Assembly (NCBI GenBank): GCA_013151965.1
Contig: JAADHF010000089.1
Location: forward strand, 1-44,206
Reading direction: 5' to 3'
Length of the DNA: 44,206 bases
Origin: Spirochaetota bacterium
Lineage (GTDB): Bacteria; Spirochaetota; Spirochaetia; SZUA-6
Made by a program: the position numbers and the translations under genes. The notes under the pieces are model-generated. The model saw nothing but the letters and a program-made list of their open reading frames with translations. It made no database searches and was not told where the DNA came from. Shown piece after piece: positions 10,156 to 35,952 of this stretch (position 1 is the stretch's first letter; each line of letters begins with the position of its first letter).

Positions 10156-11199
10156 ATGAAAAACAATGGAATATATGATAGAAACGGATTTGTAAAAGAG
10201 ACTGTCCGTGATACCGGATACCGCAAAGCCGCAGAATTCCTTATTCTGTTAGGCAGGGAAGATGCCGCCCGGGTTTTGAGTCATTTAACGGAAAAGGAAG
10301 TCAAGGGCATTACCGCGGAAATAGCTTCCATAAAAAATCTGGATGCGAAAGAGGCAAAAAAAGTCCTGGAAGAATTCGGATATCTTGCAACGACAAAGGA
10401 CCTTATAGCACGGGGAGGCCTTGAGAAAGCCAGGGAAATGCTTGTAAAAACATTCGGTGAAGAAAAAGGAAATGAGTTATACAAAAAAATAGAGATGAAA
10501 ACCGTTCCCCATCCCTTTGCTTTTCTTAATGATCTGGAAACGGACCAGATACTGATTCTTTTAAAGAATGAATCCGCACCTGTTATTTCGGTAATTCTTC
10601 CTCATGTAGATCCCTCACTCGCATCGAAGATACTGTCCGCACTGTCTGTAAAACTGCAGAAAGAAATTGTATCCAGAATATCCAGGATGGAAAAGATAAA
10701 TCCGGAAGTTCTAAGAAGAACGGAAGAAGCTTTAAAGAAAAAAATACTCACACAGGGAGAGCTGGTTACCTATGAAATCGACGGCAAAAGCTCTCTTGCT
10801 GAAATACTTAAACATATGAGCACAACAGACGAAAAAAAACTTCTCTCCGATATTCAGGATGAAAACCCGGAGCTTGCAAAAGAAATAGAAAAAAAGATAT
10901 TTACTATCGACGTATTAAAACACATGTATGATAAAGACCTTCAGAAGGTCCTGCGCGATTACTCCGATAAGGAACTTGCCCTCATTATAAAAGGTGTCGA
11001 TGATGCCATAAAAGAAAAAATCATACACAATATATCCGGAAGAAGACAGGAACTGATACAGGAGGAGAGTAAATATATGGGTCCTGTGCGAAAATCGGAA
11101 TTTAACAGGGCACTCAATGAATTTCTCGATTATCTGAAACTTCAGAATGCACGGGGTGCAGTACGGATAGCGGGAGAAGAGGATCAACTTGTACAATAA
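10156..11199 (+). CDS. fliG: Flagellar motor switch protein FliG (orphan paralog, FliG1-like)
   Basis: 347 aa. N-terminus GYRKAAEFLILLGREDAARVLSHLTEKEV and middle LILLKNESAPVISVILPHVDPSLASKILSAL match FliG N and M domain signatures. No other flagellar genes are adjacent. Confidence 0.75.
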   Translation: MKNNGIYDRNGFVKETVRDTGYRKAAEFLILLGREDAARVLSHLTEKEVKGITAEIASIKNLDAKEAKKVLEEFGYLATTKDLIARGGLEKAREMLVKTFGEEKGNELYKKIEMKTVPHPFAFLNDLETDQILILLKNESAPVISVILPHVDPSLASKILSALSVKLQKEIVSRISRMEKINPEVLRRTEEALKKKILTQGELVTYEIDGKSSLAEILKHMSTTDEKKLLSDIQDENPELAKEIEKKIFTIDVLKHMYDKDLQKVLRDYSDKELALIIKGVDDAIKEKIIHNISGRRQELIQEESKYMGPVRKSEFNRALNEFLDYLKLQNARGAVRIAGEEDQLVQ

Positions 11200-27231: not shown

Positions 27232-28983
27232 TTACGAATGTTCACCCAAAAGTACTTTAAGCTGCTGAATGTCCGAAACAAGCTTTCCTCTGTCTAAATT
27301 TCTAAACCGTTTCGGAACCATCTCCCTGCTGGTGCATTCCAGAACGGCAACCAGGTTCTGAAGATCTATTTCATGAGGATAAGCCGGAGGCACAAAGTCA
27401 TGCATGGTTTCCATGAGGTCTTTTTTAGTTATGAATACATGATTATTCATCGCAGAGAGAAATTTTGCCCGTATCAGAACCGACTCCAGATCGGCGCCTG
27501 AAAAATCATACCTGTACTTTCTGAAAAGCTCCGTTATATTAATATTCTGTATCCTTAGCCTGAGCTTTTTTACCAGGGTTTTAAAGAGATCTATTTTTTC
27601 ATCTAAATTTTCAGGGTAAAAAAGTGCAAGATGCTCTTCTGCCCTGCCCTGCCGCTTTAAATCTATGGGTATCAGATCCGGGCGGCACGTAATAAGAAAC
27701 CAGATAATTTTACCGCGGTATTCCGTATTCCCCATAAACGAAGCAATCGATGCAAAGATTCTATTGCTTGTTCCGGAATCACCATCCTGATTCCTGTCGC
27801 CTAAAAATGCATCAGCTTCATCTATCATTACACCGACCGGAGCCATTGCCATTAAAATATTAAGAATCTTTTCCAGATTGGATTCCGTTACCCCCTGCCA
27901 TTTGGACCGAAAATTACGGAATTTCACGATAGGAATTCCGATCTCTCCTGCAAAAGCGGTTACCATAAAAGACTTTCCCGTGCCTACGGGGCCCGCTATA
28001 AGATAACCCATCGGCAGCACATCGAGCCTTCCCTGCCGGATAGCTCTTGCCGCACTCCGGAAACGTTTTTTTACAAAATCATGGCCGGAAATCATGGAGA
28101 GATCATGCTCCGATTCTATAAATTCGAGTAATCCGGCTGCTTCGGATTCGATTATCTCTTTTTTTTTCCTCCGCAGGTATGAAAGATCGATTCTTTTGTC
28201 TTCCTGAAATGACTCTGCAGCGAGCTGATTGATATCGACAAGGTTAAGCCCGCTCGTAATCTTTCCTATCTCCTGAATAGACATTTCCTTATCCAGCAGA
28301 AGCTTATCCTCATGAGAAAGGTAGCGCAAAAATTTCTCACGCACATCCTCGTCGGGTATCGGAATATTGAGCTTTATTGTGCTGGGAGAACGTACCAGCC
28401 TCCGGCTTATATCGGAAAGATTCTCCGTTAAAAGTATTACGGAAACATCACCATGGGTAAATATAGGATCATTTGCCCATCTGTTAAGTGTTACAAGACA
28501 GTACCTGTCTTCATCTGTATAACGGGAAATATCCGTGTTCGGCACAATTGTTTCCGAATAGTCGATAATCAGAACAATTCTGCGGTTAAAAGGAATATTA
28601 TAGTAGAAATATTTTTCCAGATAATGAAAAGCCTTCACAGGATCTTTGGACAACAGGTCCGAAGCTGAAACCCCCTTTACCTGCTCCTTCATAATTCTTA
28701 AATAGCTATCCTCCATGTCTCCTTTACAGAAGGAAACACCGGAAGAACGGTCATAGAAAACAATTATATCCCTGTTTCCGAAAAGAACCTCGGAGATGTA
28801 ATCCTGTATCTTTACAAATGTAAATTGATCTTCCTCCATCTTGTGAGGGAGAAAATCCCGTATATTCCCATGTACAATATAGAGGTTGGCGGTTTTAGAA
28901 CAGTACTTGTAGGAGAGTTCCTGAGCCCAGGAAGGAAGTATTTTGATAAAGGGAAGATTTTTTAATATTAGCTGTTCCGCCAC
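27232..28983 (-). CDS. AAA+ ATPase with a 320-aa N-terminal domain of unknown function
   Basis: Walker A GPVGTGKS, Walker B VMIDEADAF, and the second region of homology ITCRPDLIPIDLKRQGRAEE in the C-terminal half. Confidence 0.75.
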   Translation of the reverse strand: MAEQLILKNLPFIKILPSWAQELSYKYCSKTANLYIVHGNIRDFLPHKMEEDQFTFVKIQDYISEVLFGNRDIIVFYDRSSGVSFCKGDMEDSYLRIMKEQVKGVSASDLLSKDPVKAFHYLEKYFYYNIPFNRRIVLIIDYSETIVPNTDISRYTDEDRYCLVTLNRWANDPIFTHGDVSVILLTENLSDISRRLVRSPSTIKLNIPIPDEDVREKFLRYLSHEDKLLLDKEMSIQEIGKITSGLNLVDINQLAAESFQEDKRIDLSYLRRKKKEIIESEAAGLLEFIESEHDLSMISGHDFVKKRFRSAARAIRQGRLDVLPMGYLIAGPVGTGKSFMVTAFAGEIGIPIVKFRNFRSKWQGVTESNLEKILNILMAMAPVGVMIDEADAFLGDRNQDGDSGTSNRIFASIASFMGNTEYRGKIIWFLITCRPDLIPIDLKRQGRAEEHLALFYPENLDEKIDLFKTLVKKLRLRIQNINITELFRKYRYDFSGADLESVLIRAKFLSAMNNHVFITKKDLMETMHDFVPPAYPHEIDLQNLVAVLECTSREMVPKRFRNLDRGKLVSDIQQLKVLLGEHS

Positions 28984-29082: not shown

Positions 29083-31293
29083 ATGAAAGATTCACCATTA
29101 ACTCCGTCGGAATTTTTAAACGGGAGAAAACATTTTTATATATTCACATTTTTCAATGTACTTTCTTTTCTTCTCATAAGCAGCAATATCATTATTCTCT
29201 ACGCTTTAAAACTCGGCGCGGGCAGCTTCATCATAGGCCTTCTGTCGTCTTTTATTCAGATTGCATACCTCTTTATGCTGCCCGGGCGTGCTTTAATCAC
29301 TAAAGCAGGTGCCGTAAAACTCATGGGGCGTTTCTGGGCTTTGCGCTATTTAATGATGCTTCCCGTGCTGGTTACTCCGTTACTGTACTACAATGGACTC
29401 CATAAAGCCGCTCTTTACATACTGATTTTAAGTGTTTTAGGTTTTAATATTTCAAGAGGGATTGCAATTACCAGTTACAATCCCATAATCGGTCAGCTTG
29501 CCGGCACAAAGGACAGGGGAGTTTTTCTGTCACGAATCCAGATAATTACTCACACAATTGTAATATCCCTGGGGATTATTATGGCAATATCCCTGGGAAA
29601 CAGAGCCCCGCTGTTCAGATATGCCCTTTTTATAGCCGCAGGAATTACAGCGGGTCTTATCGGATGTTATTTTATCTTTAAACTGCCCGAACTAAAGGGA
29701 TCCGCCTCTGTACTTACCGAACCGCTTTCCCGGAGTTTTATCTTAAGTATTAAAGATAAAGGTTTTAGAAAATTCATAACGGTACTATTGTTGAGCTCTC
29801 TTGCAATGTCGATGCTTGCACCATTCATAATTGTCTATTTTAAAAAGATATATCAAAATACAGACAGTCAGATTATTTTCTTTACAGTATTCGGCGGTCT
29901 TGGTGCACTCTCCATGGCTGTAATAAACGGTTTTATGATAGACCGCATAGGTTCGAAACCGCTTATTTTAATATACTCCTTTATAACATCGGCAATTATA
30001 ATTCCCCTGATCATTTCTCCCGTTTTTAAAACTGCTGTTTCGGAATATATATTTGCAGGACTGATATTCTTTCTCTCGTACATGGGAACAAACGGCATAT
30101 TGAACACATCACAGAACTATTTCCTGGCCTCCATTAAACCCCAGGAAAGGCTGAACCTCGGTATAATATACTTTCTTACAATGGGTGTTTCGGGAGCGAT
30201 CGGTTCACTTGCCGGAGGAACGGTACTGCAGGCCCTGCAGAATATCCTTAACAGTTCGAATGTGGATGTTTTCAGACTTTATTTCGGAAGTATTTTATTC
30301 CTGTTCATAATAATCAATATATTTATATTACGGTTAAATGATATAAGCGCCTACTCTGTACGGGATGCGTTTGCCATTATTTTCTCCCCGCGCGATCTGC
30401 GGGCAATAAGCCTTCTTAACAGGCTTAAAAAGACCAGGACAATTACGGAAGAGAGGGATGTTATACAAGCACTGGGTTCATCGGGCTCTTCGATTACAAG
30501 AAACGAGCTGCTTCAAAAACTACACTCACCAAGTTTTTTAATCCGGGCGGAAGCCCTGTCTGCACTCAATCATATTCCGATAGACAGCCATATAGAAACC
30601 GTCCTTATCTCGGAAGTAAAAAACCACAAATTCACTACGGCTTACATGGCTGCGGAGATAATCGGACAAAAAAAAGTAGTGTCGGGAGAAAAAGTCCTTC
30701 AGCAGGCTCTTAATTCGAAGGACTATTTTCTTGTGGGGAAAGCTATGGTCGCACTGGCAAAGCTTAAGAGCAGCCGGAGTGTTCCCGAAATTTTAAGGTT
30801 AATCGAAGAGTCTCAAAATCCGAGAGTAGTTATTCACGGTGCACACGCCATGGAAATATTTAAAGACAAAAGGGCAATTGGTGTACTGATTAAAAAAATG
30901 GAGAAAAAAACATCACCCTATGTAAGGGATGAGATTATTCTTGCAATTGCCGGGATCCTCGATATGCTGAACTGGTTCTACACGCGGTATACAATATTTC
31001 TGGAAAGTGCACAATCAGGAACTTTAGCCCTGCTCGATGATTTAAAAACTCAAGGGAAAACGCTGAAATACAGAAAAGAACTGATGGATACCGTGGAGAA
31101 CGTAACAAGGAATCAGCAGCTGTTTAAAAAACTCAGTCTGAAATTTTTCGAAACAGAAATGCCGGATTATCAACAGAATGTCAAAGATAATGTTTACCGG
31201 TACTTTAAAAATGCACTTAATAATGATCAGATACTTAAACTTGACAGATTCCGCTTTTTAACAGCAGCCTTACTGACATACTTTTCCCTTTAG
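29083..31293 (+). CDS. MFS-type transporter fused to a C-terminal HEAT/ARM-repeat domain
   Basis: About 12 TM helices in residues 20-420. Residues 450-736 contain repeated helix pairs typical of PBS-lyase/HEAT repeats (LIRAEALSALNHIP, LVGKAMVALAKLKSS, VRDEIILAIAGIL). Confidence 0.65.
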   Translation: MKDSPLTPSEFLNGRKHFYIFTFFNVLSFLLISSNIIILYALKLGAGSFIIGLLSSFIQIAYLFMLPGRALITKAGAVKLMGRFWALRYLMMLPVLVTPLLYYNGLHKAALYILILSVLGFNISRGIAITSYNPIIGQLAGTKDRGVFLSRIQIITHTIVISLGIIMAISLGNRAPLFRYALFIAAGITAGLIGCYFIFKLPELKGSASVLTEPLSRSFILSIKDKGFRKFITVLLLSSLAMSMLAPFIIVYFKKIYQNTDSQIIFFTVFGGLGALSMAVINGFMIDRIGSKPLILIYSFITSAIIIPLIISPVFKTAVSEYIFAGLIFFLSYMGTNGILNTSQNYFLASIKPQERLNLGIIYFLTMGVSGAIGSLAGGTVLQALQNILNSSNVDVFRLYFGSILFLFIIINIFILRLNDISAYSVRDAFAIIFSPRDLRAISLLNRLKKTRTITEERDVIQALGSSGSSITRNELLQKLHSPSFLIRAEALSALNHIPIDSHIETVLISEVKNHKFTTAYMAAEIIGQKKVVSGEKVLQQALNSKDYFLVGKAMVALAKLKSSRSVPEILRLIEESQNPRVVIHGAHAMEIFKDKRAIGVLIKKMEKKTSPYVRDEIILAIAGILDMLNWFYTRYTIFLESAQSGTLALLDDLKTQGKTLKYRKELMDTVENVTRNQQLFKKLSLKFFETEMPDYQQNVKDNVYRYFKNALNNDQILKLDRFRFLTAALLTYFSL

Positions 31294-34200
31294 ATGAGCT
31301 TATTATCCCGGGCGCTTTTTAAGATTCTTTTGTTCCAGTAATTACTCTCCATAAATTTTCTCTTTATCTCCGGAGAACTTATCCTGTTTGCCCTTTCCTG
31401 AAGTGTATTCCATGCTCTGTTCAGCATGGTAAATCTGTTTTCTCCAAGGCACTCGGAGTAGAGAAAGTAATAATAGTGCATGTACGGATCAAAATCCGGT
31501 ATTTTACCATGAAGAATATCCTGAAATCCGTTAATTGATTTTTCACTGTTTCCGGACAGATAGTACATATACGATAAAAACGAAACGGAAATCCTCTTCA
31601 GCATGGAATCCGAAAGGTCGAGGCACCTTCCTTCTACCGAATAAAATCCGTCGAGCCAGAAAATCCTGTCTCCTGGCAGAAAATCGTATCCGGATATCTT
31701 AATCCCGCCGTCCTCCATAAAACCCGATGCTTTTTCATATTCATTCGTCATATAGCACCCTTCTGCTGTAAACAGGAGATTCAGCTGAGACTTTTCCATA
31801 TGATCCAATATTTCAAGGCCGGTTCGTACACTGCCCCCGTAGATAAACGCACGGGCGAGCCATGCATAGACAACCTTCTCCGCTTTTTCTATTTTGTACA
31901 GAGAGAGGTAGGAGAGAGTTTTTTCCAGTACTGCAATACATCCGTCGTACAGCCCGATCTCGAATAGAAACCTTGCCTTTAAAAAATAGATAAAAACTTC
32001 CCATTCCCTGGAGAACGTTCCCGGTGTAATTTTTAATGCTTCGTCACAGTATAAAAGAGCATCACTGAGATCTCCCTGTATAAAACGGGTTATGGCGGAC
32101 AATACTACGATACTGATGGAATCAAGCGCCGATTCTGTACCGGAAATTCTGCCCGCAAGAAGAAAATACTCGAGTGCATCATCGAGCTTGCCGCGTGCAA
32201 GCATTGTACGCCCGAGTTTTATGTAGGAAGCGCGCATTCCGTCTGAATTATTCAGACTCTGAAATTTAAGCAGAGCATGTTTAGACAGAGACAGGGATTC
32301 CTCCACATTTTTTAAGGCGATATTAAGCCCTGCGATTGTTATATCCGAATCCGGAAACACGGTTAAATCCATTCTATTATCAATTTGATCTCTATTCTCC
32401 ATGTACAGGCTGTATGCTTCTTTAAAACGTCCGCTTAAACCCAGCTGATCTATCCTGTAAAGCAGCATGGCGGTTTCCAGGCCTGCACTATTCCTCTCGC
32501 TGCCTCCGGAAAGCAGCTGTTTCCATCGTGATTCTTTTAAAAAATTATCAATTCCCGTTAAATCTCTCTCATTCAGTTTTCTTTGAATAATGGCATGATA
32601 AACCTTTCCTGCAAGTTTAAACTTCTCCAGTTTAAGAAAGAAGTAGAATAGAAGTACATAGTTTGTATATTCAAATGCTTCCCATTTTTTTGTAAGATAT
32701 TCTACAAATTTTTCTATAACCTCGTTGTAAACATTCGGAACATTTTTTAAGCCGCTCATGTCGGGAAGGATATACTCTTTGCCTTCCACGAATCCGAAGT
32801 TCCGAAGACTATTGACAATTGCCGTACCATCCCGCTCCGAATACCCAAGTGAAACGATAAAATGAAGCTGATCGGTATACTTTAAAATACCTCTCGAAAT
32901 GTAGAGAGAGTGCAATACCTTTTTCTGGTCAGGGTCTAACATATTCGATAAATAGCGGCTGCAGGTTTCCGAATCCGGAAGATTATCATTTTCCGAAAAT
33001 TCAAGATAAAGAAGGCAGTGCAGTACAGGAGAATACAGCCCTTTTGTAATCCGTCTTATTTTTCGCAGCAATTTTTCGGAAAGTATAAGCTTTTCATCCA
33101 CCTTTAGTGCAAGTTCTTTGATCATATACCTGCTTAATGGTGCTATATATACCTTCCGTAATTCCATGCTCTCCAGATCTTTAAGGATTACCTTATCCGA
33201 TGAAACAAATAACGGAACAAATACTTCATATTCGGAAAAATCATGCATCATCGATAATAAGAAACGCCGGCTTTCGGAATTGTATAAATCCACATCGTCA
33301 CAAACAAAAACAGCAGGCAGATTCTTTTCCTCCATCATCCTGATAAATGCAAGAACGTAGAGATGATAAGCAAGGAAAAAATCCTCCACTATATGGTCCG
33401 GAATAATCGTATTCATTCTTTTTTTACGGGACAGGGTAAATTCTCTAAAAAGAGGCATTATTTCATCGAACACCTTCCTTTCATGGGGCAAAAGATATTC
33501 ACTTATATATTCGAAAACATCGCTTCTGATGCTGTTTAAAAAGGGATGAATCGGAGAACTGCTCTTAAAAATACTAAACAGCCGAATCCATGGATTTGTT
33601 TCATCCCTGCCTAAAATCTTCTTTACCGCTTCATACACTATTTCTGTTTTACCGACTCCTCTGTAGCCAAATACATATGGCACTGTTTTTTTATCCATAC
33701 CGTTTAAACGCGGGGTAAGTGCATCTAAAACTCTTTCTACTCCATCCTCCCTGACCCAGTTATAATCCTTAATATATTTAAGCCTGTTTTCCCTATGATT
33801 TTGTTCCCCGGTTAAATCGATACCGGTTACTTTCCATAATGTTGTAAGGGAGGAGGATTTAACTTTATCCAGGGTCGTAAATTCCTCTGCGATACTAAGC
33901 AGAGAACTGTCTATCCAGAGGGAATTCTCTTCCTCGATCCTGATAATTGTATTTTTCATATATTCGTATACTTCGGCGGAAGATAAATCCCTGTTTTCCG
34001 AGATCAAAAGATTATACCCAAATAATTCCGCATCTCTTTCGGAAAGAAAATCAACAATAGAAAGTCCTGCTTTAATAACCTGTTTAAGCAGGATTTTTTT
34101 ATCTCTGCCTTCATATTCATAAAAACCAAGACAGTCATTACTTTCCATATCTTTAATTCGGAGAGCAGTTCCTGTCTGTGTCTGCTTTTCCGTATACTCT

Positions 34201-34367
34201 TCGATAGCCGATACAAGACTGTTATTAATCTTTGCTAACTGCTTTCTGCCATTTATTCTTATTAATAGGTATATCATATTTATAATTAAACAACAAAAAT
34301 AGAGTATTTTCAAATCCATTTTTCGTATCAAATGAGATAAATCGATTAATTCATCGATCATTGACAT
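31290..34367 (-). CDS. STAND-type P-loop NTPase with a 230-aa N-terminal region (one predicted TM helix) and a C-terminal TPR-like helical array
   Basis: Walker A GYRGVGKTE and Walker B AVFVCDDVDLY. The hydrophobic N-terminal segment is LKILYFCCLIINMIYLLIRI. The C-terminal 500 aa are helical repeats. Confidence 0.65.
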   Translation of the reverse strand: MSMIDELIDLSHLIRKMDLKILYFCCLIINMIYLLIRINGRKQLAKINNSLVSAIEEYTEKQTQTGTALRIKDMESNDCLGFYEYEGRDKKILLKQVIKAGLSIVDFLSERDAELFGYNLLISENRDLSSAEVYEYMKNTIIRIEEENSLWIDSSLLSIAEEFTTLDKVKSSSLTTLWKVTGIDLTGEQNHRENRLKYIKDYNWVREDGVERVLDALTPRLNGMDKKTVPYVFGYRGVGKTEIVYEAVKKILGRDETNPWIRLFSIFKSSSPIHPFLNSIRSDVFEYISEYLLPHERKVFDEIMPLFREFTLSRKKRMNTIIPDHIVEDFFLAYHLYVLAFIRMMEEKNLPAVFVCDDVDLYNSESRRFLLSMMHDFSEYEVFVPLFVSSDKVILKDLESMELRKVYIAPLSRYMIKELALKVDEKLILSEKLLRKIRRITKGLYSPVLHCLLYLEFSENDNLPDSETCSRYLSNMLDPDQKKVLHSLYISRGILKYTDQLHFIVSLGYSERDGTAIVNSLRNFGFVEGKEYILPDMSGLKNVPNVYNEVIEKFVEYLTKKWEAFEYTNYVLLFYFFLKLEKFKLAGKVYHAIIQRKLNERDLTGIDNFLKESRWKQLLSGGSERNSAGLETAMLLYRIDQLGLSGRFKEAYSLYMENRDQIDNRMDLTVFPDSDITIAGLNIALKNVEESLSLSKHALLKFQSLNNSDGMRASYIKLGRTMLARGKLDDALEYFLLAGRISGTESALDSISIVVLSAITRFIQGDLSDALLYCDEALKITPGTFSREWEVFIYFLKARFLFEIGLYDGCIAVLEKTLSYLSLYKIEKAEKVVYAWLARAFIYGGSVRTGLEILDHMEKSQLNLLFTAEGCYMTNEYEKASGFMEDGGIKISGYDFLPGDRIFWLDGFYSVEGRCLDLSDSMLKRISVSFLSYMYYLSGNSEKSINGFQDILHGKIPDFDPYMHYYYFLYSECLGENRFTMLNRAWNTLQERANRISSPEIKRKFMESNYWNKRILKSARDNKLI

Positions 34368-34395
34368 TGGTTATATTTTACCATACCATAAAGGG

Positions 34396-35952
34396 GTGAG
34401 TTCTAAACCGGTGAAACCAGAAAAACAGCAGGAGAACGGCAAAGAAAGCTTTTTTCAGAAATTATTCTCCATATTGATGGGTAGTTCCGACCCGGAAAAG
34501 GAAAAGAAAAGATTACTAAAACAGATAGAAAAAAATCTGAAAAAGCAGAGGGTGAAATTTTATAACTCAAGAAACAATACCGTTCTTCCGCGTCTTGCCC
34601 GGTACTTTTATGAGTTTTACAAAGTTCTCGCACCTGCACAAAATCTTATCAGAAGAGGGGAAACATCCAAATCGCTGCAGATGCTCATAATCGAAACATC
34701 CCTGACGGAAGACCAGTTCCTGGTAAAAGAAAAACTCTCCGAAGAATCGATCCGCAGCAGATTACAGGGAGCTGCCGATCAGGATATTATTTTCGAGGAA
34801 GTAAGAAACGACATAAAAAATTTCTTCCTGGAATTTGATATTAACCGTGTGGGTGAAATAGATGCAAAATATAATAATGCCGTATTACTTTTGGACCTTA
34901 TACATTTCGACTACTATTTTCTTTTAAAAAAATTCGATTCCGGTTTGCCGGAAAATGATTTTCTATACAAACCTCATTTTGAAGAAATAGATGCAGAGTA
35001 CGTTGCAGACGATATCAAAGATTTTCTCGAGATAATTCCCGCAATAAATACATCTGTTAACTGGTCTGATATTATCGATATGCTTAACCAGTTCCGGGGA
35101 GTGGAAATTATTCCGGAAGCGGGGTGGAAAAAAATACTGCACCTGACGCGGCAAATTCAAAAAACAGAAATTTTTACAATGCTTGTGCAGCTTATTACAA
35201 AGGATCCCTTCTATAAGCCCTCGCCGAGAGTATATAAAGCAAAAATAGTGGAGAACTACCTCGGAAAACTTAAAACACAAACGGAAATTACAATTCAGCG
35301 TTTCCTGCAGGAGAAACATTCATCAAAGATCGGTGAATTGGCAAAATACCTGTTCGGCACCACATCCATAGTACGTCTTAAAAATTACTCTGATAAAGCA
35401 AATATTTTATTTACAAAACTGCTTCTCGGAGGTTTTTCACATATTGCTTCGCTAAACTATCTAAAGGCATTCTTACTGGATTATTTAAAAAAAGACATAC
35501 GGGAATTTATAGACCTGCTGCTTATTAAAGGAAAATGGACTTCCAATCTGGTTTCTCAACAGCTTTCGGAAACATACCATAAGCTTTTAAAACTATCCGA
35601 TGAAATCAGTGAATTCGACAGTTCTCTCGATGAAGAGCAAATACTCGGAAAGAAACTAAAGGCACTGCTTATAAAAAGCAAAAGGGATAAAAAAGCTGTA
35701 AGCCAGCTTCGCCTGCTTCTTAAAGAGATAAACGATATGGCAAAGGGAATGCTCGCCAGAGCAGCTTCCGACCTGATAATACTGGGTAAAACTTTAAAGA
35801 GTACACTCGATGATTATCAGAAACCGCATCCTGAATTGATTATTAACTGGAAAGAGATAAAAAATTACACGGAGAAAGATGTTAAAATATTTATCGTGGA
35901 TATATACAGAAAAATCTATAATTTTCTGCAGCTTTTAAAATTGACCAAATAA
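34396..35952 (+). CDS. Hypothetical Lys/Glu-rich alpha-helical protein
   Basis: 518-aa ORF with a GTG start, diverging from the STAND gene across a 28-bp gap. No recognisable motifs. Confidence 0.5.
   Translation: MSSKPVKPEKQQENGKESFFQKLFSILMGSSDPEKEKKRLLKQIEKNLKKQRVKFYNSRNNTVLPRLARYFYEFYKVLAPAQNLIRRGETSKSLQMLIIETSLTEDQFLVKEKLSEESIRSRLQGAADQDIIFEEVRNDIKNFFLEFDINRVGEIDAKYNNAVLLLDLIHFDYYFLLKKFDSGLPENDFLYKPHFEEIDAEYVADDIKDFLEIIPAINTSVNWSDIIDMLNQFRGVEIIPEAGWKKILHLTRQIQKTEIFTMLVQLITKDPFYKPSPRVYKAKIVENYLGKLKTQTEITIQRFLQEKHSSKIGELAKYLFGTTSIVRLKNYSDKANILFTKLLLGGFSHIASLNYLKAFLLDYLKKDIREFIDLLLIKGKWTSNLVSQQLSETYHKLLKLSDEISEFDSSLDEEQILGKKLKALLIKSKRDKKAVSQLRLLLKEINDMAKGMLARAASDLIILGKTLKSTLDDYQKPHPELIINWKEIKNYTEKDVKIFIVDIYRKIYNFLQLLKLTK

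Follow-up and report, generated by a model that had tools for sequence, protein, structure and literature searches.

A STAND-TPR protein with an N-terminal cyclase-homology fold from a Spirochaetota bacterium: a probable soluble signaling switch or scaffold

The locus and its domain organization

The window analyzed here is the whole 44,206-nt stretch of contig JAADHF010000089.1 from a Spirochaetota bacterium. An uninterrupted open reading frame is located at 31290..34367 on the minus strand, with 1025 codons counted from the first ATG. This 1025-aa frame had been reported in a preliminary description of the DNA and was borne out by the open frame and by homology, as a search at E ≤ 1e-30 retrieved 372 or more homologous clusters (50% identity), nearly all of them ~960–1070 aa in length. 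The surrounding genes of the window are housekeeping in character (his genes, alaS, rlmN, LolA, MacB), and the immediate neighbors, in the clade to which the window belongs, are a DUF5312 gene and an MFS-HEAT gene. The following features were assigned, with residues numbered from the first ATG:

34278..34367, minus strand: in-frame upstream extension (codons 1–30), the source of an apparent TM helix; assessed by frameshift, codon-position and pLDDT data
31290..34277, minus strand: gene as most likely translated, 995 aa; ATG (M31) at 34277-34275, stop codon at 31290-31292
33813..34277, minus strand: N-terminal cyclase-homology domain, residues 31-185; topology beta-alpha-alpha-beta-beta-alpha-beta-alpha-beta, catalytically degenerate
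33108..33752, minus strand: STAND-type P-loop NTPase (NOD) domain, residues 206-420
33645..33668, minus strand: Walker A, G234-Y-R-G-V-G-K240-T241, canonical in the window protein
33294..33314, minus strand: Walker B, A352-VFVC-D357-D358 (hhhhDD), by motif reading
32688..33107, minus strand: helical and winged-helix-like arm of the STAND module, residues 421-560, from AlphaFold2 secondary structure; the PH0952/MalT alignment reaches past the P-loop domain
31704..32687, minus strand: TPR superhelix, residues 561-888, with nearly invariant K696, Q703, Y734, R799, Y807, W836, R839 and E869
31293..31703, minus strand: conserved C-terminal cap, residues 889-1025, with W904, G907, E912, D960, P961, Q990, W1011 and N1012

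The domain order is therefore a cyclase-homology domain, a STAND NTPase with its helical arm, a TPR superhelix and a conserved C-terminal cap. The Walker A (GYRGVGKT) and hhhhDD Walker B motifs noted earlier were confirmed at residues 234-241 and 352-358, and the window protein thus carries both sequence marks of a STAND NTPase (GxxxxGK[ST] and hhhhDD/DE). Its NTPase domain and helical/winged-helix arm could be superposed on solved STAND proteins and are followed by a repeat sensor. In Pfam searches AAA_16 matched residues 206-376 slightly under its cut-off (E 4.9e-7, 30.8 bits against 32.6), and precomputed AAA_16 matches exist for two relatives, P0002 and P0050. Among 161 family representatives, Walker A is retained in 11 and degenerate in 118, and the Walker A lysine is missing from most family members. 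The Walker B consensus of the family is hhhCED, with DD in 9 of the 161. Within the family the P-loop is lost in clear natural steps: Walker A is canonical in some members, partial in others and fully degenerate in the rest, and this series could reveal how STAND switches turn into nucleotide-independent scaffolds.

The helical, TPR-like nature of the C-terminal part, also read in the preliminary description, was upheld by Pfam TPR_12 and TPR_2 matches at residues 678-738 above their cut-offs (TPR_MalT was weak) and by the AlphaFold2 model (pLDDT 82.4, pTM 0.73), which consists of all-helical repeats from about residue 560 onward. Conservation peaks in the TPR and C-terminal region, where polar residues are nearly invariant. 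Within the family no region is better conserved than the C-terminal cap (mean top-residue frequency 0.46, versus 0.27–0.30 in the cyclase-like and NTPase domains), which was modeled at pLDDT 85–97. The TPR superhelix is likely a sensor or partner-binding groove. No HTH output domain (LuxR or SARP) was matched by Pfam in the protein, in agreement with the earlier reading, and the model stays TPR to the C-terminus.

The source lineage was Spirochaetota for all 17 genome loci examined and for all named members, e.g., Spirochaeta cellobiosiphila WP_028973757.1, and the family appears to be Spirochaetota-specific. An NCBIfam search of the protein returned no family, and literature searches turned up no paper on this STAND-TPR family.

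Gene neighborhood

Synteny is full between the window locus and a 51%-identical ortholog. Across the homologous loci (denoted L), a gene for HATPase_c_2, with or without PilZ, lies divergent from the homolog in 15 cases. A GAF-SpoIIE/STAS/HATPase_c_2 module adjoins the homolog, arranged in three different ways, in L021, L025, L026 and L028, and a DUF1577-PilZ gene lies immediately upstream in L003, L015 and L023. DUF1577 has been described as the c-di-GMP-binding YcgR-GAZ domain (PMC11800159), and the same work leaves the function of YcgR-GAZ receptors open. These associations suggest that the family probably belongs to a spirochaete cytoplasmic signaling network composed of partner switching (RsbW-like HATPase_c_2 kinase, STAS, GAF-PP2C) and c-di-GMP receptors (PilZ, YcgR-GAZ). 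No partner-switching or PilZ genes were found within the 44 kb of the window, so for the window protein the link to this network is carried over from relatives that are only 20–30% identical.

In 15 loci the homolog is followed immediately downstream, on the same strand, by a gene for a 583-aa AAA+ ATPase, which is VAT/Cdc48 D2-like (phmmer against PDB, E 3e-33). In the window the AAA+ gene is also on the same strand, parted from the STAND gene only by the inserted MFS-HEAT gene. TPR proteins are commonly co-factors of AAA+ or chaperone machines, and the protein could accordingly be a substrate adaptor or regulator of this Cdc48-like unfoldase, with the TPR groove recruiting clients or docking on the AAA+ ring. 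The pairing is, however, absent from the distant members L003, L015, L021, L023, L025, L026, L027 and L028, and conservation is much stronger in the AAA+ gene than in the STAND gene; the adjacency may therefore be synteny inherited within one clade. Part of the neighborhood conservation, that of the AAA+ gene especially, could in the same way reflect the inherited synteny of related genomes and not functional coupling. An adaptor role is judged unlikely; it is compatible with the signaling interpretation, as one possible output.

The N-terminal domain and the translation start

Sequence searches with the N-terminal domain gave nothing: Pfam analysis of the N-terminal domains of 20 members produced no Guanylate_cyc (PF00211) match even at E ≤ 5, a domain profile searched against PDB sequences returned nothing relevant, and hhalign against the Rv1625c catalytic domain gave a probability of 0.6%, i.e., no sequence similarity. 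Only fold comparison of the predicted structure succeeded, and a class III cyclase fold was found, with the beta-alpha-alpha-beta-beta-alpha-beta palm of the cyclase-homology fold present in the N-terminal domain of the model. The earlier statement that no cyclase domain is evident therefore holds at the sequence level and fails at the level of fold.

Because the hhalign comparison with Rv1625c offers no sequence similarity, the catalytic positions were placed by secondary structure and not by residue-level superposition. Mapped in this way, the cyclase catalytic set (two metal-binding Asp, transition-state Asn and Arg, and the substrate-specifying pair) was not found: the window protein has R37 at the beta-1 acidic position, and the helix corresponding to alpha 4 is without a conserved Asn or Arg. 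Beta 4 and alpha 4 are joined in the model by only ~5 residues, at the place where canonical cyclases have the hairpin with the substrate-specifying residue. Across 26 members, the cyclase-like domain has no position that is invariably D, E, N, R or K. The predicted structure and its mapped positions thus give a strong indication that the domain is a pseudo-cyclase without the catalytic constellation. An active nucleotidyl cyclase under STAND-TPR control, as in Rv0386, would have ligand on the TPR and ATP on the NTPase dimerize the N-terminal domains for cNMP synthesis; given the Arg at beta 1, the lack of any invariant D, E, N, R or K, the short beta 4-alpha 4 segment, the missing conserved Asn or Arg in alpha 4 and the failure of Guanylate_cyc to match any of the 20 members, such an enzyme is very improbable here.

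The preliminary description had also placed a strongly hydrophobic TM helix in the N-terminal region, as a possible anchor or membrane-disrupting effector. A membrane-anchored STAND protein would start at M1 or M17, with residues ~19-39 as a signal-anchor or TM helix tethering it to, or disrupting, the inner membrane. The mean Kyte-Doolittle value across residues 21-39 is indeed 1.99, the frame continues without a stop ahead of M31 in the window, L001, L004 and L005, with ATG or TTG at the M17 position, and codons 17-30 share 10 of 14 identical residues with the 51%-identical ortholog. The hydrophobic stretch exists, however, only if translation is assumed upstream of M31. Several observations place the start elsewhere. 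NCBI's own protein call is 995 aa and begins at M31. The start falls exactly at the M31 column in 132 of 161 family representatives, and the extension is confined to the clade of the window. The frame is closed by stops 4, 10 and 8 codons ahead of the start in L002, L003 and L028, respectively, and in the 90%-identical ortholog L004 an 8-nt indel shifts the first ATG out of frame. In the AlphaFold2 model residues 1-28 have pLDDT <50, and residues 31-38, half of the putative helix, are modeled as the first beta strand of the conserved N-terminal fold. Translation most likely starts at M31 (window position 34277).

Identity to the 51%-identical ortholog at codon positions 1/2/3 is 0.79/0.79/0.93 in codons 17-30, versus 0.66/0.75/0.44 in the gene body; the stronger conservation of third positions in codons 17-30 points to constraint on nucleotides and not on a peptide. 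The region contains a conserved TTTTTGTTGTTTAATTATAA element, which cannot be translated in L028, and an invariant promoter-like TTGACA-17-TA(A/C)CAT on the plus strand at 34361-34389, which overlaps the first ATG and faces the divergent DUF5312 gene. In L027 a "hydrophobic" peptide likewise arises from T-rich intergenic DNA read in frame. No RNA family was matched when the conserved 5' region was searched against Rfam. Positions 34278..34367 are most likely a non-coding 5'/promoter region common to the gene and the divergent DUF5312 gene. A sigma-70 promoter of the gene's own (TTGAAA-17-TTTAAT, picked by eye for a leaderless M31 transcript) was not reported by the promoter scan, which requires at position 2 of the -10 element an A that TTTAAT lacks, and was not retained.

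No translated, conserved TM helix was therefore found, no segment outside residues 21-39 exceeds a Kyte-Doolittle value of 1.34, and neither an N-terminal anchor nor a membrane-disrupting effector was borne out. As all four closest orthologs keep the frame open ahead of M31, a short hydrophobic extension beginning at M17 retains a small probability. A membrane-anchored form is considered quite improbable, and the protein is probably cytoplasmic and soluble, without a membrane anchor. As a caution for annotation, AT-rich 5' DNA read in frame yields false TM helices.

Proposed function and comparison with known systems

The preliminary description had left the choice between signaling and defense. 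An anti-phage STAND of the Avs/AVAST kind, in which the TPR senses a phage protein, the NTPase oligomerizes and the N-terminal domain is a toxic effector, would share the tripartite layout common to Avs proteins (N-terminal non-NTPase domain, STAND, C-terminal TPR), would fit a STAND protein that evolves much faster than its neighbors (27% identity, versus 77% for the adjacent AAA+ ATPase), and could draw on the IS110 and HicAB genes near the distant homolog L003; it is nonetheless exceedingly unlikely, as PADLOC gave 0 matches for the window protein, 11 of 26 relatives matched only the generic PADLOC TPR model and 0 of 26 matched Avs or STAND defense models, tblastn found no match among 50,697 phage or 72,556 plasmid records, orthologs keep the same housekeeping locus across genomes, the neighbors in the window are housekeeping genes, the N-terminal domain is a degenerate cyclase and not a nuclease, protease, Sir2, TIR or TM effector, and conservation is highest in the sensor half of the protein, the opposite of what is expected of arms-race sensors. 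A defense-island or mobile context for the window protein was accordingly not found among the window genes, the orthologous loci or the phage and plasmid collections. The earlier defense reading is not borne out, in view of the missing PADLOC STAND/Avs matches and the conserved housekeeping synteny. A known N-terminal domain together with syntenic conservation, which the preliminary description had itself named as telling against defense, were largely found, within Spirochaetota. "STAND + TPR" by itself is no evidence for phage defense. The signaling half of the earlier description fits the evidence.

The gene probably encodes a soluble, cytoplasmic, 995-residue signaling switch or scaffold of the STAND class, and not a defense protein. 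Whereas the gene, its start site, the domain folds, the motif states, the family distribution and the synteny come from the analysis itself, the binding partner, the switch and the physiological output are inferred, and the mechanism proposed is modeled on STAND proteins such as MalT and Apaf-1. Briefly, the TPR/C-terminal groove would bind a conserved partner or ligand. The clade of the window has intact Walker A and B motifs, and there such binding would be coupled to ATP binding or exchange on the NTPase and to self-association. The pseudo-cyclase domains, whose fold normally works as a dimer, would then meet to provide an output through nucleotide binding or protein docking, with no cNMP synthesis. 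Most other members have an eroded P-loop and would therefore probably act as static scaffolds.

A more speculative extension, to which we would give only tentative credence, is that both enzymatic modules are now pseudo-enzymes (the cyclase always, the NTPase in most lineages) beside an almost invariant TPR/C-terminal groove, and that the protein is a non-sigma-factor partner or scaffold of partner-switching kinases (HATPase_c_2/STAS/PP2C), integrating PilZ and YcgR-GAZ and, in one clade, feeding the Cdc48-like AAA+ unfoldase. If true, this would be a signaling hub without a characterized counterpart. To our knowledge, spirochaete partner-switching and c-di-GMP networks are poorly understood, and a conserved 1000-residue STAND scaffold found repeatedly beside partner-switching and c-di-GMP modules offers a specific candidate for a component still missing from them.

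Among known systems, the Avs/AVAST proteins have the logic of an N-terminal module, a STAND NTPase and a C-terminal TPR sensor in common with the spirochaete protein, which differs in its lack of PADLOC matches, of a mobile or defense-island context and of a toxic effector, and in a sensor that is conserved and not hypervariable. MalT (8bob, 1hz4) has a DNA-binding output domain, which is absent from the spirochaete protein, whereas the extra domain of the latter is N-terminal and cyclase-like; without a DNA-binding output domain, the protein is not a MalT-type transcription factor. AfsR gave only a weak sequence match. The class III adenylyl-cyclase-like ATP-binding domain of a Pseudomonas aeruginosa transcriptional regulator (6yii) is structurally less similar to the spirochaete domain than active cyclases are. 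The top Foldseek match of the model was PH0952 of Pyrococcus horikoshii (6mfv, E 9.6e-13), a STAND NTPase with a TPR sensor, which matched the NTPase-TPR part over 568 of its 641 residues at 14–15% identity and left the cyclase-like domain uncovered. The order of cyclase-homology domain, P-loop STAND NTPase and helical/repeat region occurs in Mycobacterium tuberculosis Rv0386, Rv1358 and Rv2488c (bioRxiv 10.1101/2024.03.06.583649), which have the same N-to-C order as the spirochaete protein. Compared with the Rv0386 type, the spirochaete protein has a cyclase domain unrecognizable by sequence and without conserved catalytic residues, no LuxR HTH, a P-loop eroded in most of the family, and an apparently Spirochaetota-specific distribution. 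The cyclase-homology/STAND/TPR order is already known, and the protein is probably a fairly ordinary lineage-specific regulator.

Reading frame and translation start

The minus-strand ORF at 31290..34367 was intact, with no interruption across the 1025 codons counted from the first ATG. The core of the preliminary description, in which helical repeats follow a STAND-like P-loop NTPase, was borne out by the Walker motifs listed below and by Pfam matches to AAA_16 (residues 206-376, E 4.9e-7, 30.8 bits, slightly below the 32.6-bit cut-off), to TPR_12 and TPR_2 (residues 678-738, both above cut-off) and, weakly, to TPR_MalT. Searches of NCBIfam and PADLOC returned zero matches.

Residues 234-241: Walker A, GYRGVGKT
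Residues 352-358: Walker B, AVFVCDD

The N-terminal transmembrane helix of that description was not sustained. The stretch in question, hydrophobic over residues 21-39 (Kyte-Doolittle 1.99), is present only if translation starts 5' of M31 (window 34277). The NCBI entry for the same protein is 995 aa long and therefore starts at M31, and the M31 column was the exact start in 132 of 161 aligned family representatives, among which a hydrophobic N-terminal extension was seen only in the window's own clade. In-frame stops precede the corresponding Met by 4, 10 and 8 codons in the homologous loci L002, L003 and L028, respectively, and an 8-nt indel in the 90%-identical ortholog (L004) throws the first ATG out of frame. 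In a full-length AlphaFold2 model built from 26 homologs (pLDDT 82.4, pTM 0.73), residues 1-28 had pLDDT below 50 and residues 31-38 formed the first beta strand of the folded domain. Compared with a 51%-identical ortholog, identity at codon positions 1/2/3 followed the usual coding pattern in the gene body (0.66/0.75/0.44), and was 0.79/0.79/0.93 in codons 17-30 and 0.47/0.40/0.40 in codons 1-16, which indicates that constraint upstream of M31 acts on the nucleotide sequence and not on a peptide. T-rich intergenic DNA of locus L027, read in frame, yielded a comparable "hydrophobic" peptide. The transmembrane segment is thus most likely artefactual, a product of in-frame reading of the 5' region, with M31 as the start; a small chance is kept for a short extension initiated at M17, because the frame remains open in all four close orthologs.

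A start at M31 leaves the following features 5' of the gene.

34361-34389, plus strand (opposite to the STAND gene): promoter-like site TTGACA-17-TA(A/C)CAT, 7 bp upstream of the DUF5312 gene
34396-35952, plus strand: DUF5312 gene, divergent from the STAND gene

DUF5312 was the constant divergent partner in six loci (the window, L001, L004, L005, L027 and L028). The promoter-like site was invariant across five loci, and the first ATG falls within it. Because no more than 7 bp separate the -10 hexamer from the GTG annotated as the DUF5312 start, the gene may in fact begin further downstream. The ~40 nt upstream of M31 (window about 34280-34320, minus strand) were 88% identical to the ortholog with only 51% protein identity, and the conserved core TTTTTGTTGTTTAATTATAA, just 5' of M31, was also present in L028, where it is untranslatable. 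The element is probably a promoter or 5' leader of the STAND gene, or an operator. It had no match in Rfam, and no obvious Shine-Dalgarno sequence preceded M31.

Domain erosion and family conservation

The N-terminal domain matched class III cyclases by fold at 6-13% identity, a relationship undetected by every sequence method used. Only M31, Q43, L51, L115 and G117 were invariant within residues 31-233 across 26 family members, with no D, E, N, R or K among them. The equivalent of the first metal-binding Asp, placed at beta-1 by secondary structure, was E or D in 90 of 161 relatives and Arg in the window; the canonical catalytic set therefore appears lost, and the model predicts a cyclase-homology domain without it.

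A word-indexed search found only four relatives; an exhaustive profile search recovered 372 clusters (50% identity) at E<=1e-30, nearly all full length (about 960-1070 aa). All 17 genome loci and every member with a source name were from Spirochaetota, among them one from a cultured species, Spirochaeta cellobiosiphila (WP_028973757.1; annotation "hypothetical protein"). Of 161 representatives, 11 had a canonical Walker A, 32 a partial one and 118 a degenerate one: the window's clade kept GxxGVGKT, as did its closest outgroups (proteins P0049 and P0057), and the large clade around P0003 carried GPVxxDRR. A signature of the family, R-L-x-x-[LI]-F-K-x-x-S-x-x-H-P-F-L-N-S, stands between the two Walker motifs (residues 262-279; window 33531-33584, minus strand); S271, H274, P275 and N278 were invariant among 26 members, and none was among the positions reaching 85% in a wider set of 130.

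In the set of 130, with members below 60% identity, conservation was weakest in the NTPase and cyclase-like domains and strongest in the TPR (residues 690-888) and the cap at the C-terminus (889-1025), with nearly invariant polar residues K696, Q703, Y734, R799, Y807, W836, R839, E869, E912, D960, Q990, W1011 and N1012. Selection therefore acts mainly on a putative binding surface.

Gene neighbourhood and the defence reading

The window carries ordinary chromosomal genes (hisG, hisB, hisZ-like, alaS, rlmN, an asnS/aspS-type tRNA synthetase, glycerol kinase, FliG, LolA-like, MacB-type ABC transporter and MGMT). The FliG homolog (FliG_N, FliG_M, FliG_C; 10156-11199, plus strand) lies among non-flagellar genes; an unassigned ORF of 246 aa precedes it, and a class II (D/K/N-type) tRNA synthetase follows. 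The 51%-identical ortholog shared the window's order MGMT, DUF362/Fer4, DUF5312, STAND gene, MFS-HEAT, AAA+, DUF4139. The two genes next downstream of the STAND gene are as follows.

27232-28983, minus strand: AAA+ ATPase, 583 aa, one Walker A (GPVGTGKS at residue 331)
29083-31293, plus strand: MFS transporter fused to a ~300-aa C-terminal HEAT-repeat region, convergent with the STAND gene, ends overlapping by 4 nt

By phmmer the ATPase is similar to the VAT/Cdc48 D2 domain (E 3e-33); its N-terminal region, about 300 aa long, has no P-loop. The MFS-HEAT gene, between the STAND and AAA+ genes, was confined to the window's clade (L001, L004). In 15 loci with relatives 27-31% identical, a divergent HATPase_c_2 gene lay upstream, often with a small PilZ gene, and a 583-aa Cdc48/VAT-like AAA+ ATPase directly downstream on the same strand, 75-77% identical to the window copy whereas the neighbouring STAND protein was only 27% identical; rlmN and hisB were close by in four. 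A full partner-switching set (GAF-SpoIIE, STAS, HATPase_c_2) accompanied more distant members in L021 and L025 (divergent), L026 (doubled) and L028 (downstream, same strand, after a dCache-HAMP gene); L028 also shared with the window the synteny of DUF5312, DUF362, MGMT, LolA and MacB. A DUF1577-PilZ gene was immediately upstream in L003, L015 and L023; DUF1577 is the spirochaete YcgR-GAZ family, which binds c-di-GMP (PMC11800159). HD/HD_assoc_2 phosphohydrolase and ComFB-domain genes within a few kb in L021, L023, L025 and L026, alongside partner-switching and YcgR-GAZ genes, suggest a larger conserved spirochaete signalling neighbourhood. At the window locus partner-switching and PilZ genes were absent, the constant partner there being DUF5312. 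Linkage kept despite changed gene orders suggests functional coupling of the family with partner-switching and c-di-GMP signalling.

An anti-phage role of Avs/AVAST type, also put forward earlier, is very improbable: only the rapid overall divergence (27% identity beside a 77% neighbour) counts for it, against a conserved locus in housekeeping context, a sensor half that is the best conserved part of the protein, the lack of a toxic effector domain, and searches with the STAND protein that matched neither PADLOC STAND or Avs models nor phage or plasmid sequences. Mobile or defence-like neighbours were confined to L003, where the distant homolog P0004 lay beside a transposase of the IS110 family and a HicA/HicB toxin-antitoxin pair (L003 9982-14156).

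Proposed mechanism and known systems

We propose that the protein is a cytoplasmic STAND switch or scaffold whose conserved TPR/C-terminal groove would bind a conserved partner; from this step onward the mechanism is our inference. In the window's clade, with its intact P-loop, partner binding may be coupled to ATP binding and self-association, which would juxtapose the pseudo-cyclase domains, their output being docking or the binding of a nucleotide. Most other lineages would have a vestigial NTPase, with the protein serving as a scaffold. The partner could be the RsbW-like kinase and STAS module, a PilZ protein or the AAA+ unfoldase.

The cyclase/STAND ATPase/repeat layout is already known, for example in mycobacterial proteins of the Rv0386 and Rv2488c type (bioRxiv 10.1101/2024.03.06.583649), with which the window protein shares it, and PDB 6yii is a precedent for a cyclase-fold domain called an ATP-binding protein by its depositors. 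What is new is the family itself, deeply diverged and restricted to Spirochaetota, together with an apparently dead cyclase, a P-loop in progressive erosion and a repeated association with partner-switching and PilZ genes.
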